Source: an uncultured cyanobacterium
Lineage (GTDB): Bacteria > Cyanobacteriota > Cyanobacteriia > CAKZMO01
Direction: 5' to 3'
Length of the DNA stretch: 64,000 bases
NCBI GenBank assembly: GCA_963719515.1
Contig: CAVRCJ010000003.1
Location: 608,001-672,000 of the forward strand
A program made the translations under genes and the position numbers. Below are positions 3,263 to 50,180 of the stretch, piece by piece. How positions within the stretch are numbered: the stretch's first letter is position 1; each line of letters opens with the position of its first letter. Below the pieces are notes generated by a model that worked only from the letters and a program-made list of their open reading frames with translations, was not told the DNA's origin and searched no databases.

Positions 3263-4426
3263 CTAAGCTGGCGAGAGCGCTGGGGCAGGGCAGCGGTCCA
3301 GCACCTGCTTGATTGTCAGGGCGGTCCAGTCTACGTCGGCCTCGGTGGTGTGCCGTCCTAGGGTCAGCCGGATGCCGCACCTAGCCGCGCGATCGCCGTA
3401 GCCCATAGCCTTGAGGATCGGGCTGGGGGAAAGCTTACCGCTGTGGCAGGCGGACCCGGCGCTGATGCCAATCCCCGCCAGGTTCATTTGGCGCACCAAA
3501 GTCTTGCCGCTGAGGAGGACGCCGTCACCCTGAGTTAAGTAAAAGCTGAGATGGTGGGGCAGACGGTGGACCGGATCGCCGGTCAGCCGGAGCCTGGGTT
3601 CGGATTGGAGCTGTTTCCAGAGGCGATCGCGCAGCTGCCGGAGCCGCTTCTCCTCCTGCTCTAGGGTTTGGTGGGCCAGGGCCGCAGCGACGCCAAATCC
3701 CGCGATCGCCGGGGTGGCTTGGGTTCCTGAGCGACGGCCTCCCTCCTGACCTCCCCCCCCGATTAGAGGCACTAAAATGACCCCGGGCCGGATGTACAGC
3801 GCCCCGGTCCCCTGCGGGCCGTAGATCTTGTGGCTCGACAGAGACAGCATATCCACCGGCAGCTGCTGCACGTCTATGGGCAAGCGACCCGCTACCTGAA
3901 CGGCGTCGGTGTGGAACAGGGCTCCGTGACGGCGGGTAATGTCGCACAGCTCCCGAATAGGCTGTAGAGTGCCCACCTCACTCTGACCGTAAATGATGGA
4001 GACCAGCGCCGTATCGGACCTGAGAGCCACTTTTAAATCTTTTGGGTCAACGCGTCCGTGGGCACTCACCGGCAGCCGCGTCACCTGCCAACCCCGCTGC
4101 TCAAGCAGCCGCACGGGTTCCGCGATCGCCGAATGCTCGACGCTGGAGATGATCAGGTGCCGGGGGGCGGGGTAGCGGTCTGCCGTTCCCCTGATGGCGA
4201 GGGTGTTGGCCTCGGTGCCGCCTGAGGTGAAAGCAATAGCGTCGATGGGGGCATTGATTAGGGCGGCAAGGCTACTGCGGGCTTGCTCGACGTAAGTAGC
4301 CGCGCGAATGCCCCACTGATGCAGACTAGAAGGGTTGCCCCATTGGTCTGTCATGACCTGCTGCATAAGGGCCACGGCGTCGGGGTGGGGCGGGGTGGTA
4401 GCGCTGTAGTCTAAATAGATCTGCAT
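3263..4426 (-). CDS. iscS: Cysteine desulfurase (IscS/NifS family)
   Basis: MQIYLDYSATTP start, SSHKIYGPQG PLP lysine, SAGSACHS catalytic Cys. Confidence 0.9.
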   Translation of the reverse strand: MQIYLDYSATTPPHPDAVALMQQVMTDQWGNPSSLHQWGIRAATYVEQARSSLAALINAPIDAIAFTSGGTEANTLAIRGTADRYPAPRHLIISSVEHSAIAEPVRLLEQRGWQVTRLPVSAHGRVDPKDLKVALRSDTALVSIIYGQSEVGTLQPIRELCDITRRHGALFHTDAVQVAGRLPIDVQQLPVDMLSLSSHKIYGPQGTGALYIRPGVILVPLIGGGGQEGGRRSGTQATPAIAGFGVAAALAHQTLEQEEKRLRQLRDRLWKQLQSEPRLRLTGDPVHRLPHHLSFYLTQGDGVLLSGKTLVRQMNLAGIGISAGSACHSGKLSPSPILKAMGYGDRAARCGIRLTLGRHTTEADVDWTALTIKQVLDRCPAPALSPA

Positions 4427-38823: not shown

Positions 38824-39006
38824 CTACCCGTCAGGGTGAGCGTCGGGATGAGAGTCGCGGTCGTCGATGGGGCTCAATGCCCCGGAGACGGCCAAACTTC
38901 GGATGTACTCCCTAAGGACATCGTTGATAGTTCTTTCGGTCATCTCATAATACTTGTCAAGATGCTGCTTTTCTCTATCAGCGGCTCTAATAGTTATTTG
39001 TTGCAT
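38824..39006 (-). CDS. Small RHH/CopG-like protein inside the IS
   Basis: ITIR....EK..L..Y.....RT..DVLREYIRSL pattern, divergent from tnpB. Confidence 0.65.
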   Translation of the reverse strand: MQQITIRAADREKQHLDKYYEMTERTINDVLREYIRSLAVSGALSPIDDRDSHPDAHPDG

Positions 39007-39039
39007 GTCGTTCTGATGTCAATATGCTATCATTATTGC

Positions 39040-40236
39040 ATGAAAGTCACTTATCAGTACAAGTTGCGTCCAGCGGCTGAGCAAACGGTTACCATGACCC
39101 AATGGCTAGATATGCTTCGGGCACAGTACAACTGGTTGCTGGCTGAGCGCTTCGACTGGTGGGAGATGAACCGCTGTTCGGTCAACGCCTGCCCACTCAC
39201 CTGTAGCCTTGCGCCACTCAAAGATAATCCTAATTACTACAGCCAGAAGGCTAGCCTAGTACCTCTCAAGCGAGAGCGGCCCTGGTACAAAGATTTGCAC
39301 TCACAAGCGCTTCAGGAGGTGACGAAGCAGGTAAAGCAGACGTTCGAGCGTTTCATCAAAGGTGATAAAAACGGTAAGCGTAGCGGCAAGCCTCGGTTCA
39401 AAGGCGCGGGGCGCTACAGGACGTTCACGTTCCCGCAGATGAAACCTGACTGCATCGATGGAAGTCGTATTACCCTGCCTAAGATTGGCCAGGTGAAGCT
39501 AATCCTTCATCGCCCGATACCTGATGGGTTTACTGTCAAAACGGCCAAGGTGACTCGCAAAGCAGATGGTTGGTATGCGAGCCTGTTACTGGAAAACAAT
39601 GCCGTTCCGATGCTTACTCCGGATGTTGATAGGGCTAAGTCTGTCGGTGTTGACGTTGGGCTGAAGGATTTCTTGGTTACCAGTGACGGTGAGAGCGTTC
39701 CTATCCCTCAGTTCTTTCGACGCTCAGAGCGGCAGCTATCCAAGCTGCAGCGGCAGCTATCGAGACAGAAGAAGGGCTCTAACCGCTGGCGTAAGCAGGT
39801 GAATCGCATCGCCAAACTGCATCTGAAAATATCGCGTCAACGCCGTGATTTCTTTTCTAAGGTGTGGGATTGGCTGTTTTCAAAGTACGATGTTGTCGCT
39901 CATGAAAAGCTCAACATCAAAGGACTTGCTCGAACCAGACTGGCAAAGTCAATCGCTGATGCCGCATGGGGTACATTCTTGGAGATAGGCTCTTTCAAAG
40001 CCGCGAAAGCTGGAAAGATGACCATCGCTGAGAACCCACGCGGAACCAGCATTGATTGCTCGGGTTGTGGTGAGCGGGTACCAAAGACGCTGGCCGATCG
40101 GGTCCATAGTTGCCCGTCATGCGGCTTAACGATCTGTCGCGACCACAACGCGGCTATCAACCTATTGAATAGGGCTGTGGGACATCAAGCCCTTAATCTC
40201 TCAGGAAATGTCTCAGCGGTAGCTGGGAGTCACTGA
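39040..40236 (+). CDS. tnpB: RNA-guided endonuclease TnpB
   Basis: YQYKLRP start, KPRFK, RuvC residues GVDVG / HEKL / RDHNAA, Zn finger CSGC...CPSC. Confidence 0.95.
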   Translation: MKVTYQYKLRPAAEQTVTMTQWLDMLRAQYNWLLAERFDWWEMNRCSVNACPLTCSLAPLKDNPNYYSQKASLVPLKRERPWYKDLHSQALQEVTKQVKQTFERFIKGDKNGKRSGKPRFKGAGRYRTFTFPQMKPDCIDGSRITLPKIGQVKLILHRPIPDGFTVKTAKVTRKADGWYASLLLENNAVPMLTPDVDRAKSVGVDVGLKDFLVTSDGESVPIPQFFRRSERQLSKLQRQLSRQKKGSNRWRKQVNRIAKLHLKISRQRRDFFSKVWDWLFSKYDVVAHEKLNIKGLARTRLAKSIADAAWGTFLEIGSFKAAKAGKMTIAENPRGTSIDCSGCGERVPKTLADRVHSCPSCGLTICRDHNAAINLLNRAVGHQALNLSGNVSAVAGSH

Positions 40237-45482: not shown

Positions 45483-45514
45483 GGCCCTCACCCCCGGCCC
45501 CTCTCTCAACGCTG

Positions 45515-45733
45515 ATACCGCTGGCGAATTTCATGTCTTGTTACATCTCGGCTATTTCCTGCCCCGGAGAAGGCCCCCTAAATCCCCCAATTCTGGGGGA
45601 CTTCAGAGAGGTTAGAACTCCTTAAAGTCAATAGCCGCGAATAGTATGGCCACTGCTCCGGTTCCCCCAGAATTGGGGGTTAGGGGGCCTCGAAGGCGTA
45701 CAGCTCGATTACGAAATATTTCGCCAGTGGTAT
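45515..45733. mobile_element. MITE with 14-bp TIRs, inserted in a palindromic repeat and containing an internal inverted repeat
   Basis: ataccgctggcgaa / ttcgccagtggtat TIRs flanked by caacgctg direct repeats; internal IR at 45571-45690. Confidence 0.75.
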
Positions 45734-45941
45734 CAACGCTGGGAGAGGGGAGTCTGATTCCCTCCCCTCGGAATTGAGGGAAGGGCTAGGGATGAGAGCC
45801 TCCCATGGCGCTAAACGGTTACCAGGGGAAACGCCTAGACGAGGTTTATTCGTCAGGGGTCTATAATTTGAGCAGATAAGGATGGCTCGCTAGAGTAATG
45901 AAGAAAGGGCTGGCCTCAGAAGAAGGTAAAACTTAAGGCCT

Positions 45942-46337
45942 ATGGAACCGCTCCCTATGATTCAAATTACCTTCGGACTCAGCAACGCCGACGAGGGCGA
46001 TCGCCTCCGGTTTTCCAAGCAGGTGCTGCCAGAGCTGCGGGACTTGGACGAAGTGCAGCGGGCCGACCGCACCGAGGTGATGGCGGCGGAAGACGGCGTC
46101 AAGGGCTTTGAAACCCTGCTGGGCTTTTTGACGGCGGAGGTGACGCGGGAGAGCCTAACGGAATTCCTCAAATGGATGGGCGATCGCTTTGCGGATAAGA
46201 CCCTGAAGGTGGCGGTTAAAGTAGGGGAGAAGGAAATCGAGCTAGAGGCGACGAGCCGCAAAGAGCTGGATGACCTGGAGCAGCGGGCCACCCGGCTGCT
46301 GGCGGCAATGGATACCGGCAGTTCCGAAGCCTCGTAG
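45942..46337 (+). CDS. EACC1-like small partner of a caspase (effector-associated constant component)
   Basis: 131 aa directly upstream of a caspase gene; L..ELRDLDEV...GVKG...LLG.L...L..FL.W.....K.LKV.V pattern recalled for this family, not confirmed by search. Confidence 0.55.
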   Translation: MEPLPMIQITFGLSNADEGDRLRFSKQVLPELRDLDEVQRADRTEVMAAEDGVKGFETLLGFLTAEVTRESLTEFLKWMGDRFADKTLKVAVKVGEKEIELEATSRKELDDLEQRATRLLAAMDTGSSEAS

Positions 46338-46383: not shown

Positions 46384-48498
46384 GTGCCCAGAAAATTAGC
46401 CCTATTGATCGGCGTCAGCGACTATGGCGAGGGATTTGATCCCTTAAGTGCTCCCGTCAAAGACGTTGCCGCCCTGCAGCGGGTGCTGGCAAATCCCGAG
46501 ATGGGTCACTTTGACGAAGTCAAAACCCTGACTAACCCTGGCTTGGTAGAAATGCGGCGGGAAATTGGCACCCTGTTTTCCACCTCCCAAAAAGACGACC
46601 TGGTGCTGCTGTTCTTCTCCGGCCACGGCGTCACCGATGACGACTATCGGCTGTACCTGACCACAAAGGCATCCGCCAAAGATACGTTTAAGTTCGACTC
46701 CTTAGAGGCCAGCTACATCCAAAACTTTTCCGACAGCGCTTGCGCCAAGCGGCAAGTGATTATTTTGGACTGCTGCTACAGCGGCGCGTTTGCCGGGGGG
46801 TGGCAGCCCAAGGGGGCGGAGGTAAAGCTGGAGCTAGAGCGGGAGCTGGGCAAGGAGGGGCGGGTAGTGTTGACGTCGTCCTCTTCGACGCAGGTGTCGT
46901 TTCAGCAGGAGGATGGGGAGCTATCGCTGTATACCCAGTATTTGGTGGAGGGAATTGAGACGGGGGCGGCGGATAAGGACAAGGATGGGGCGATTCGGGT
47001 GCGGGAGCTGCACGAGTACGCGAAGCGGAAGGTGCAGGAGGTGAAGCCGAAGCTGAAGCCGGACATTATTGTGGCGGATGATGAGGGCTATGATATTGTG
47101 CTGAGCCGGGTGAAGCTGGATGCAGCGCTGCGATTTCGGCGGGAGGTGGAGAAGCGGGTTGACCATGAGCGTGGGGAGATTTTAGATATTGACCAGGAGA
47201 CGCTGCAGGTGAAGGCGCAGCGTCTAAATTTGCCCGCTGAGAAGGTCAAGGAAATTATCGACAGCGTACTGGAACCATCGCGGCGCAGGTTGCGGAATTT
47301 GGAGCGGTATCGGCAGAAGTACGAAGAGTATGCCGAGCGGGGCTATCCGTTGAGCGAGCGGGTAATGGAGAGCCTGCGGGACTGGCAGCAGGAGGTGCTG
47401 GGGCTAGAGGACAACGATGTTGCAGGGATTCAGCGGCAAGCTCACCAGCGATATGCGCGAAGTGAACAGGTTAAGGAAGAAGTTGATAATTCCAATTTCC
47501 TCACTTCTCTGACAGCAGATGAGGCAGCGGGAAGACGGCCCACGGCTCCGCCTCAAGTTGATACGGCTTACAAATTTGAGCAGATACTACCTGAACCAAA
47601 TACAACCGACAAACAAGGCAGGCTTGAACAACCGCTGACCACTTTCAGCTTTCAGACCGCTAGAATCACAGGCTGTCAGAAGCAGGGAGGGTTCCTTGGC
47701 GTAGGCGGTGAAGTTGTCTGCGATATTAGACGCGAAACGAAGACAGCACAGGGATTTGTTGAGGGCTTGGGCAACGGCGCGACGCTGGAACTAGTGCAGA
47801 TTCCGGCTGGGCGATTTGTAATGGGCTCGCCAGCAAAAGAGGCCACCTACGGTGATGAGAAGCCTCAGCACGCGGTTAGAGTGCCGCCATTTCTCATAGG
47901 CAAGTTCGTGGTGACTCAGGCTCAATGTGAGGCTGTGATGGGTACTAATCCAGCAGTCCAATACAATGCTGACCATTTTGTAGCGCCTGATAAACCCGTT
48001 GTGGGCGTGAGCTGGAATGACGCGATCGCTTTTTGCGAAAAGCTGTCTCAGCAGACTGGTCGAATGTATCGATTGCCGAGTGAGGCGCAATGGGAGTATG
48101 CCTGCCGGGCTGGAACCGAGACGCCGTTCTACTTTGGAGAGACGCTGACAGTGGCGATCGCAAACTATGACGCTAGCCAAACTTACGGCAGCGGACCAAA
48201 AGGTGAATATCTAAAAAAGACAAAGGCGGTAGGATCTTTCCCTACCAACGCCTTTGGCCTGTTTGATATGCATGGCAATGTCTGGGAATGGTGCCAAGAC
48301 CACTGGCATGGAAACTATAGGGGCGCACCCGCTGATGGAAGCGCCTGGATCGCAGGTGGAGACAGCGATAAACGTGTTCTACGCGGCGGTTCCTGGTTCA
48401 ATCTTCCGATCTTTTGCCGTTCGGCGAATCGGAACAGGAACGCCCCCGGCTACCTCGGCTACGGGATGGGTTTCCGGGTGTGTGTGGCGTCGGCGTGA
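46384..48498 (+). CDS. Caspase (peptidase C14)::helical linker::FGE-sulfatase/C-type lectin-fold protein; DGR target
   Basis: ALLIGVSDY, FFSGHG (His) and ILDCCYSG (Cys) dyad; C-terminal F.MGS, RLPSEAQWEYACRAG, NAFGLFDMHGNVWEWC, RGGSW, GFRV. Confidence 0.92.
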   Translation: MPRKLALLIGVSDYGEGFDPLSAPVKDVAALQRVLANPEMGHFDEVKTLTNPGLVEMRREIGTLFSTSQKDDLVLLFFSGHGVTDDDYRLYLTTKASAKDTFKFDSLEASYIQNFSDSACAKRQVIILDCCYSGAFAGGWQPKGAEVKLELERELGKEGRVVLTSSSSTQVSFQQEDGELSLYTQYLVEGIETGAADKDKDGAIRVRELHEYAKRKVQEVKPKLKPDIIVADDEGYDIVLSRVKLDAALRFRREVEKRVDHERGEILDIDQETLQVKAQRLNLPAEKVKEIIDSVLEPSRRRLRNLERYRQKYEEYAERGYPLSERVMESLRDWQQEVLGLEDNDVAGIQRQAHQRYARSEQVKEEVDNSNFLTSLTADEAAGRRPTAPPQVDTAYKFEQILPEPNTTDKQGRLEQPLTTFSFQTARITGCQKQGGFLGVGGEVVCDIRRETKTAQGFVEGLGNGATLELVQIPAGRFVMGSPAKEATYGDEKPQHAVRVPPFLIGKFVVTQAQCEAVMGTNPAVQYNADHFVAPDKPVVGVSWNDAIAFCEKLSQQTGRMYRLPSEAQWEYACRAGTETPFYFGETLTVAIANYDASQTYGSGPKGEYLKKTKAVGSFPTNAFGLFDMHGNVWEWCQDHWHGNYRGAPADGSAWIAGGDSDKRVLRGGSWFNLPIFCRSANRNRNAPGYLGYGMGFRVCVASA
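48382..48498 (+). repeat. DGR variable region (VR)
   Basis: 117-nt gene end, colinear with 48665-48781; 12 of 17 mismatches lie opposite TR adenines. Confidence 0.9.
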
Positions 48499-48664
48499 GG
48501 ACCTTGCCCTTTGCGCCTTTTCCCTCTTGCCCTCTGTTCCGCACTTAGCGCGGCGAAAAATTTTTCCTTTGGTACTACCTGACCGCGTTTGTAACGAACG
48601 AAGCAACATTAGCCCCCTGCCACCGATGGGCATGGTATATCCCTATGTGGGGCAGGCATTAAAA

Positions 48665-48781
48665 CGCGGCGGTTCCTGGTACAACCATCCGATCAATTGC
48701 CGTTCGGCGAATCGGAACAGGAACACCCCCGGCAACATCAACAACAATGTGGGGTTCCGGGTGTGTGCGGCGTCGGCGTGA
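48665..48781 (+). ncRNA. DGR template repeat (TR)
   Basis: Intergenic copy of VR rich in AAC/AAT codons (tac aac cat ccg atc aat ... aac atc aac aac aat). Confidence 0.88.
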
Positions 48782-49017
48782 GCACTCCCAACGGCCAGAA
48801 TCGGTAGAAGGGATTCTATCGAGCGTGTGACTGGGAGTCCAGACCTGCTCCGGCGAGGGCAGAAATGCTTTCCGAAAATAAAACAGGGCCAGGTCATTGG
48901 TAGGGAAACCGAAGATTATCTGGCCCCCCAGCTAGACAGACCCTAGATCCCTGGAATCTGGTAAGGCTTCGCAAAGCGTCATCCTTGGCCGCTCAGGTAT
49001 CACCGTTGCCCCGTGAG

Positions 49018-49204
49018 ATGTTACCACCGACAGTTGAAGTCTCGCCGCCGACAGATAAACTCTTTCGGGCGAAACGACGGTTAGCGGCGTAGAGGCAATC
49101 GCTGCCTAGCCGACGACGAGCGCCTGGCACAGATGCAGCAAGAGAAGGAGGTGCTGTTGGCGAAACTCCGCTCCCTCGGCATCAACCCAGAAGAGCTGCA
49201 ATAG
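49018..49204 (+). pseudogene. Probable remnant of a Uma2-family endonuclease gene (C-terminal tail)
   Basis: GNRCLADDERLAQMQQEKEVLLAKLRSLGINPEELQ* resembles cyanobacterial Uma2 tails; no in-frame body. Confidence 0.5.
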
Positions 49205-49232
49205 CCTGCCCACCAGCGATCGCCCAAACCTT

Positions 49233-49583: not shown

Positions 49584-49886
49584 GAGGGACTCCATTTGTG
49601 TTGTTTTGGAGTCCCCCAAAGAATCTGGACATTCCAGACGTGATAAGGGCTCGGTATGACTCAGGTACAATCGCACAAGGTCATCCAAACAGCTTGCTCT
49701 GTTCTGGTGGCTCAGGGGCTGCATGTTGTTCGTAGCAACATGCGGCTCCGCCAGACCGACTCTTTGGGAGACTAGAACCATGAGGACCACGGCTCATAGC
49801 TCACTAAGGTAGATCATTTATGCGCTGATGGCAAGGGGCACGTAGCGTTTTTAGCGAGGGGGCTGGCTGGCGAGGGCGGCGGGATA

Positions 49887-50180
49887 AGCGATCGCCATTC
49901 TCCAACGAGTGCTAATTACTCTCGAACAAGCGATCGCCACTCTCCAGTGAGTCATTGCCACTCTCGCACGGATGATCATCACTCTCCCACGAGCGATCGC
50001 TAGTCTCCAACGAGTGGGCATTACTCTCGCAGGAGCGATCGCCACTCTCTGCCAAGCGATTGCCACGTTCCGACGAGTCATTATGGCTCTCGCACGAGTA
50101 ATCGCCACACTTCCACGAGCAATGGCCACGCTCTGACGAGTGATCAGGACTCTCACACGAGCGATCGCCAGTCTCCTACA
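49887..50180. repeat. Degenerate 21-bp tandem array, 14 units, built around HIP1
   Basis: Consensus near agcgatcgccactctcgcacg with strict 21-nt period and no spacers. Confidence 0.88.

Follow-up and report, generated by a model that had tools for sequence, protein, structure and literature searches.

Within the window, a stretch of 64,000 nt from one contig of the uncultured cyanobacterium assembly GCA_963719515.1, we delineated a compact locus of two genes, a repeat pair and a predicted RNA gene, all on the forward strand (Table 1). A small EACC1-like gene lies directly upstream of a gene encoding a caspase joined by a linker to a C-terminal CLec/FGE-sulfatase domain. The 3′ end of this target gene forms the VR of a DGR, the matching TR lies a short distance downstream, and a structured spacer RNA follows the TR.

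Table 1 Features of the EACC1-like/caspase::CLec locus in window coordinates
Feature	Position	Strand	Basis or remark
EACC1-like gene, 126 aa, likely caspase-activated pore-forming effector	45957..46337 (alternative start 45942)	+	homology
Target gene: caspase (PF00656), linker, CLec/FGE-sulfatase (PF03781), 704 aa	46384..48498	+	Pfam
Putative caspase catalytic dyad: His81 (46624-46626), Cys131 (46774-46776)	46624..46776	+	motif location
VR	48382..48498	+	final 38 codons and stop of the target gene; gapless alignment
Pyrimidine tract after the VR, then a GC hairpin (48539-48553) and an A/T tract; probably a target-recognition element	48499..48568	+	role inferred
-10-like hexamer position upstream of the template RNA	48636..48641	+	window copy misfits TAnnnT at position 6
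5′ strand of the helix closing the TR in the template RNA, G-rich octamer	48649..48656	+	pairs with 48844-48851
TR, AAC-rich	48665..48781	+	gapless alignment; sole TR+spacer locus in the assembly
Structured spacer RNA, Rfam RT-14-like	48783..48927	+	full-length match to RF02921

The target gene encodes a CLec fold at its 3′ end, where the VR is located, as indicated by the match to PF03781 at residues 469–699 (E 3.5e-55) and by the PDB relatives of this domain, which include PvdO (E 6e-43) and the DGR target TvpA (E 8e-22). The N-terminal caspase domain (PF00656, residues 3–219, E 1.4e-21) carries intact FSGHG (His81) and LDCCYSG motifs, in agreement with the intact His/Cys dyad described in a previous sequence-only reading of this DNA. 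From its alignment to the D-x-C caspase motif, we take Cys131 to be the putative catalytic residue, and from the known caspase motifs we presume that His81 and Cys131 form the catalytic dyad.

That reading had correctly recognized the caspase::CLec gene with its TR, but had missed the EACC1-like effector gene upstream and the structured spacer RNA. The 126-aa ORF itself gave no direct match in a Pfam search, and its assignment comes through homologs. Ten of 13 scanned homologs matched PF19953 (EACC1) at E≤0.0075, three of them reaching the cut-off; a homolog with 97% identity matched with an E of 8.6e-4, while homologs with 68–70% identity passed the cut-off. Ranks 2 and 3 in the ESM Atlas were PF19953-bearing clusters (scores 0.92 and 0.91) with the family on 29–37% of their members. 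The EACC1 of this locus would thus be a divergent cyanobacterial form that falls below the Pfam cut-off. Both genes are intact and their adjacency is conserved, with an EACC1-like gene directly upstream of the caspase ortholog in the genomes G012, G009, G010 and G022.

A two-gene EACC1-caspase conflict system has been described by Kaur et al. (PMC7159879), and our two genes have the arrangement given there and by Evans et al. (PMC12642450): a short EACC1-like gene immediately precedes one whose product begins with a caspase domain and ends in a variable domain. The locus is therefore very probably a member of this system, judging by sequence, and with an EACC1-like upstream ORF it would constitute an EACC1-caspase::CLec defence module. 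For the Ktedonobacter pair, Evans et al. (PMC12642450) report that cleavage by the caspase frees a membrane-disrupting, pore-forming EACC1 fragment, and they name DGRs among the fused partners of such systems. By analogy with the published homologs, a ligand bound at the variable CLec tip may activate the caspase, which would then cleave the EACC1-like protein; the resulting membrane pore would kill the cell. KrAvs12, the characterised EACC1-caspase system, has a STAND sensor, whereas here a CLec tip with a private template takes that place.

The VR has been written from the adjacent TR by adenine-specific changes. Both repeats are 117 nt long and align without gaps at 48382–48498 and 48665–48781, exactly where the sequence-only reading had placed them, and they are separated by the 166 bp (48499–48664) given there. 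The formal alignment reproduced its counts as well: 12 of the 25 TR adenines are changed in the VR, against 5 of 92 non-A positions (Fisher one-sided p=2.3e-6), the focus on TR adenines that is typical of DGR repeat pairs. The bias is directional, with only 1 of 14 VR adenines differing. All adenine substitutions lie at codon position 1 (seven) or 2 (five), and the TR allows 15 variable codons, corresponding to ~1.2e14 protein variants with zero stops. The adenine enrichment on which that reading had made its DGR call depend is thus present, which supports the view that this caspase::CLec gene holds the VR of a DGR and carries its own template. Chance or an ordinary partial gene duplication, with no DGR involved, would suit a genome without an RT (see below), but we give this explanation virtually no weight and rejected it: the adenine bias is too strong (p=2e-6) and directional, an RT-14-like spacer follows the TR, and the same spacer motif stands beside DGR RTs in dozens of genomes.

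The TR apparently sits in a structurally complete template-RNA gene, predicted to yield an RNA of ~280 nt; for the Trichodesmium DGR, Pfreundt et al. (PMC4143802) described a similar, separately transcribed TR RNA of 265 nt. The spacer directly after the TR matches the Rfam RT-14 RNA (RF02921) over its full length, with 38.7 bits (E 0.0075) against a gathering score of 48.1 and, unlike RT-14, with no RT alongside. It also aligns with 56 other DGR spacers. The helix closing the TR is present in both the MFE and the centroid fold, with a whole-RNA z of only -2.2. One of its pairs covaries over 142 loci (C-G 90, T-A 35, T-G 17), counts that are partly constrained because the 5′ side was found by motif.

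Upstream of the template RNA, a TAnnnT hexamer occurs in 89 of 149 related loci, in 77 of them at -12/-13 from the G-run (22% in shuffles); a sigma-70 scan of this region in the window yielded no site on the plus strand. The layout of pyrimidine tract, hairpin and A/T tract follows most of the 33 VRs compared. The window's own hairpin is weak (z -0.37) and degenerate, and that of a same-genus relative is cleaner. Downstream of the spacer RNA lies a decayed pseudogene, and one metagenome contig matches positions 48573–48782 and is unlike the window beyond.

The locus works like a DGR target-plus-template module and is not a complete DGR, because we found neither an RT nor an avd gene. The assembly (5.28 Mb, 21 contigs) is rated 100% complete, a value that counts marker genes, and these contigs could miss an RT carried by a plasmid or repeat that did not assemble. 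Searches of the assembly gave no match to PF00078 (RT) and none at E≤10 to a clade RT profile that detects an RT at E≤1e-40 in 77 of 401 genomes; tblastn with eight RTs of the clade reached at best an E of 0.024. For Avd, the best values were 0.4 with profile NF033474 and 0.063 in tblastn with seven Avds. Neither gene was found in the window, and the 166-bp gap and the downstream region gave no significant match to an RT or Avd remnant (best E among the matches listed 0.008–0.2, in unrelated frames). There is no second TR in the assembly, and the VR thus has no match in a TR belonging to a complete DGR at another site. An RT was also lacking in all four other genomes of the same genus (80–93% complete).

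Thus, the absence of RT and avd from the 64 kb noted in the sequence-only reading extends to the whole assembly, and the genome search it had proposed for RT, avd and further TR copies found none of these. Its premise that an RT should follow the TR does not hold. The usual order in complete DGRs of this lineage, first read in seven loci and then in many more, is target-avd-RT-TR-spacer; the missing genes therefore normally occupy the place of the stretch between VR and TR, and it is this gap that is telling.

The cassette appears to belong to a recurring type that consists of a target, a private TR and a spacer, without an RT. A scan of GTDB contigs for the conserved spacer motif yielded at least 120 stretches, 80 among the matches listed, and two overlapping samples of 401 genomes contained the same motif in 77 and 74 cases. 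In the unselected scan, the compact RT-less layout was seen in 12 of the 79 distinct loci among the matches listed, four of them at contig edges. We retrieved chiefly loci with no RT alongside, together with controls; the resulting set of 203 unique TR+spacer loci is enriched by choice and does not reflect frequency. It comprises 84 complete DGRs, 34 partial ones, 29 RT-less target-TR cassettes (four near a contig edge), 14 loci with adjacent target and TR and avd/RT on the flank, 14 orphan templates and 28 edge cases. Read from sequence, the targets include caspase-, kinase- and TIR-like fusions. One cassette (L043) has the same EACC1-caspase::CLec-TR arrangement as the window, shows 0 of 68 non-A mismatches and resides in a genome with three complete DGRs, and a conjugative plasmid of Acaryochloris bears a cassette with three targets whose 4-kb flanks are both free of an RT.

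In a phylogenetic analysis, the TR+spacer of the window grouped in a clade of seven leaves from three families and one metagenome contig (support 0.89; UFBoot 95 on the 40 nearest sequences and 63 for a spacer-only tree). This clade consists of four RT-less cassettes, two contig-edge cases and one VR-spacer fusion, and includes none of the 84 complete DGRs sampled. Its VRs follow their own diverged TRs (7/7 and 5/6 sites), which implies rewriting after divergence. Since the closest TR relatives in three families lack an RT in cis wherever the context is visible, the RT-less layout seems older than this genome. The proposal of a recently decapitated DGR in the sequence-only reading hence agrees with a cassette that looks stalled, but not with the apparent age of its layout. 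A single origin of all such satellites was rejected: the middles of the spacers are unrelated between groups, and the satellites are scattered over the tree.

We consider it rather likely that the sensor tip of this EACC1-caspase::CLec protein was diversified by a cyanobacterial DGR of the clade 5E / Lineage 4 type and is now part of a stalled RT-less cassette. In the 93-nt GGSW-GFR core, 4 of 69 non-A positions mismatch. The nearest upstream VR in complete DGRs has no such mismatch in 51 of 68 cases and four or more in only 4 of 68, so that the window VR is more drifted than 64 of 68 intact DGR targets. As the assembly lacks RT and Avd and the VR has drifted, the cassette is probably stalled instead of borrowing an RT now, and the locus in the window is probably inactive; the borrowing of RT and Avd in trans proposed earlier is not supported for this genome. 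The tip would have been rewritten as long as the cell contained an RT-Avd pair, and drift would have begun once the lineage lost its last RT. The EACC1-like/caspase pair probably remains functional, its sensor sequence being fixed. Lineage 4 DGRs make more non-A changes according to Wu et al. (PMC5758913), and this excess counts against equating drift with stalling, as do the 2–7 such mismatches in 3 of 14 RT-less cassettes from RT-bearing genomes.

Relatives show the locus in further stages of decay, which speaks for stalling. G003, of the same genus, has kept the target and the hairpin with the spacer RNA reduced to its 3′ tip, and G001 has kept the target alone. The EACC1-like gene (63%), caspase (77%), CLec domain and spacer tip are kept in G012, which is devoid of the TR. 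Four DNA read runs were covered as assembled contigs at low depth: one contig of 151 nt matches the TR without a difference, and others from relatives span parts of the locus, none of them informative on VR variants.

That the cassette is active at present, with RT and Avd supplied in trans from an unassembled or transient element such as a plasmid or prophage, appears quite improbable to us. The template-RNA gene looks complete with its closing helix intact, the assembly is in 21 contigs, and six cyanobacterial plasmids possess a related TR+spacer; of three plasmids inspected, one harbours a complete avd-RT-TR DGR and another an avd and an RT split by an IS. These points are opposed by the five empty RT/Avd searches, the 4/69 non-A mismatches, the degenerate hairpin and -10 box, and the result that the spacer motif, searched as an exact pattern, had no match in IMG/VR viral contigs.

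For the RT-less template-carrying satellites as a class, service in trans is plausible. We scored 30 RT-less target-TR-spacer cassettes, 14 from RT-bearing genomes, 8 from RT-less genomes and 8 at contig edges, including L224, L232 and L242 with an avd or RT remnant on the flank and leaving out metagenome loci of undetermined RT status. The median number of non-A mismatches was 0 with a full RT elsewhere in the genome (n=14) versus 3 in RT-less genomes (n=8; one-sided Mann-Whitney p=0.014), in groups assembled by hand after the data had been seen and with kin that are not independent. The p-value was 0.045 once related cassettes were collapsed, 0.063 with the eight contig-edge cases joined to the RT-less group, and 0.004–0.09 under earlier groupings. 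Cassettes in RT-bearing genomes mostly had 0–1 non-A mismatches to their own TR (11/14; 2–7 in the other three), and for four cassettes the RT was confirmed on a different contig. Compared with the TR of the resident complete DGR, satellite VRs differed at 11–21 non-A sites (11 cassettes compared). We therefore put forward, with slightly more doubt than confidence, that cyanobacterial DGRs have a non-autonomous tier of long-lived satellites, each a sensor gene with a private template RNA, which any compatible RT-Avd can rewrite.

Alternatively, the window cassette may be a plain fossil that lost avd-RT at the locus and never functioned afterwards, similar cassettes being independent recent deletions without any service in trans. 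Partial RT or avd remnants are indeed common in the enriched set (the 34 partial loci), and the 14 loci with adjacent target and TR belong to complete DGRs in which avd-RT precedes the target or comes after the spacer, so that loss of the flank would yield the layout of the window. A recent independent loss of the cis RT would give the same snapshot, and complete members of the clade may be unsampled. The pseudogene after the window spacer and the metagenome contig that diverges from the window beyond 48782 point in the same direction, as do the 0–1 mismatches in 3 of 8 cassettes (9 of 16 with the contig-edge cases) whose assemblies contain no full RT. Tuning of the satellite spacer to the resident RT had to be rejected as a general rule, as the spacer of the resident DGR ranked first of 91 in only one comparison and 5th to 82nd otherwise; this, too, counts against service in trans. 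We nevertheless regard the fossil as unlikely, because drift tracks the presence of an RT elsewhere in the genome, the seven-leaf clade contains no complete DGR and holds together in the 40-sequence subset, its VRs follow their own diverged TRs, and the gap between VR and TR is free of RT or Avd remnants.

If the satellite tier is real, one RT-Avd would serve several unrelated templates, the diversification of suicide sensors would toggle with gain (e.g., by a plasmid) or loss of an RT, and the window would represent a dormant member that could be re-awakened. An RT-Avd that accepts foreign template RNAs would be a natural multiplexed hypermutation system and would reveal which RNA elements make a template compatible with an RT, knowledge that matters for DGR engineering. 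RT-anchored DGR searches are blind to RT-less cassettes, and therefore DGR-diversified defence sensors may be undercounted. Moreover, the module gives the idea of a hypervariable antigen sensor a simple readout, because the likely substrate of the caspase is a pore-former whose toxicity can be measured in E. coli with an established assay. The locus by itself is of modest importance.

Degenerate DGR loci, caspase-CLec targets and the link between EACC1-caspase systems and DGRs have already been published. The C-terminal CLec VR and adenine-specific TR are those of cyanobacterial CLec/FGE DGRs (PMC5758913, PMC7517822, PMC4143802), which differ from the window in that the latter lacks avd and RT both in cis and elsewhere in its assembly. 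The N-terminal caspase domain is shared with Tery_2077 and with the cyanobacterial caspase-CLec (orthocaspase) targets reported by Vallota-Eastman et al. (PMC7517822), who also described all3226 as "remnant TR-VR homology" without a proximal RT and interpreted it as removal of the machinery. In Thiohalocapsa PB-PSB1, Dore et al. (PMC10907252) found degenerate DGR loci that likewise miss the RT, inferred diversification in trans for DGR 4 and 5, and proposed that the DGR targets are antigen sensors of a suicide-type defence. The trans-served VRs reported there match the TR of a complete DGR, whereas the satellite VRs described here match only their own adjacent TR. Leftover DGR targets without TR or RT in Treponema (PMC4891356) and partial TR-VR pairs in metagenomes (PMC4159848) have been reported as well. 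In the open main-text literature, we found no description of satellites with private templates as a class; some may appear in Fig. 6A of PMC12642450 or among the loci tabulated in PMC7517822 and PMC10907252.

We also considered other FGE tips in the assembly as targets of this TR. Those on C6 and C10 differ from it at 25 and 27 of 69 non-A sites, respectively, and are therefore not its targets. FGE relatives occur in viral contigs.

Elsewhere among the compared loci, the avd-RT block is not always found in the usual complete order of target, avd, RT, TR and spacer. It lies inverted between the target and the TR at loci of several genomes (L238, L239, L240, L241, L261, L278 and L297), and downstream, 3′ of the spacer, in L243, L268, L296 and L313, while in L066, L207 and L212 a second target is preceded by avd-RT. 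The behaviour of avd-RT is that of a unit that can be rearranged.

The spacer RNA directly follows a VR-like gene end, with a separate TR absent, in L315 (~3370-3650) and L105. This layout is as expected if recombination between VR and TR had deleted the intervening DNA, and such a VR-spacer fusion is a likely end state of compact cassettes, the RT-less loci with target, TR and spacer. A different alteration concerns the template itself: in L290 (G687) and L326, non-AAC codons shared with the VR occur within the TR, and few TR adenines are substituted, namely 3 of 22 in L290 and 6 of 23 in L326. The pattern looks as if part of the template had been converted by mutated cDNA or by the VR.

In the relative G012, which has kept EACC1, caspase and CLec, a short opposite-strand ORF lies downstream of the VR (L432, contig C12), between a hairpin and the spacer remnant, at the expected TR position; its product presumably resembles a four-helix-bundle protein.

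At G000:C6:107258-110047, the window's own assembly carries a second caspase::FGE gene with a 707-aa frame, adjoined by a divergently oriented second EACC1-like gene (35%). Comparison of the tip of this caspase::FGE gene with the window TR gave no match.

The DNA flanking the window module contains several further features. A Pfam search of the window returned no match for the heptad-repeat ORF. One of the inverted repeats spans 31 nt at 87%, the other 17 nt at 100%. By tblastx, the pseudogene weakly resembles two other places in the assembly, C3:801687-801958 and a C-terminal tail on contig C10.

Features in the DNA flanking the EACC1-caspase module
Feature	Position in window	Remark
IS605-family TnpB	38836-40236	~6 kb upstream of the module
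Nested inverted repeats, MITE/REP-like	45498-45750	upstream of the EACC1-like gene
Decayed pseudogene	48960-49205	directly 3′ of the spacer RNA
21-nt periodic repeat	49851-50179	encodes heptad-repeat ORF on the minus strand
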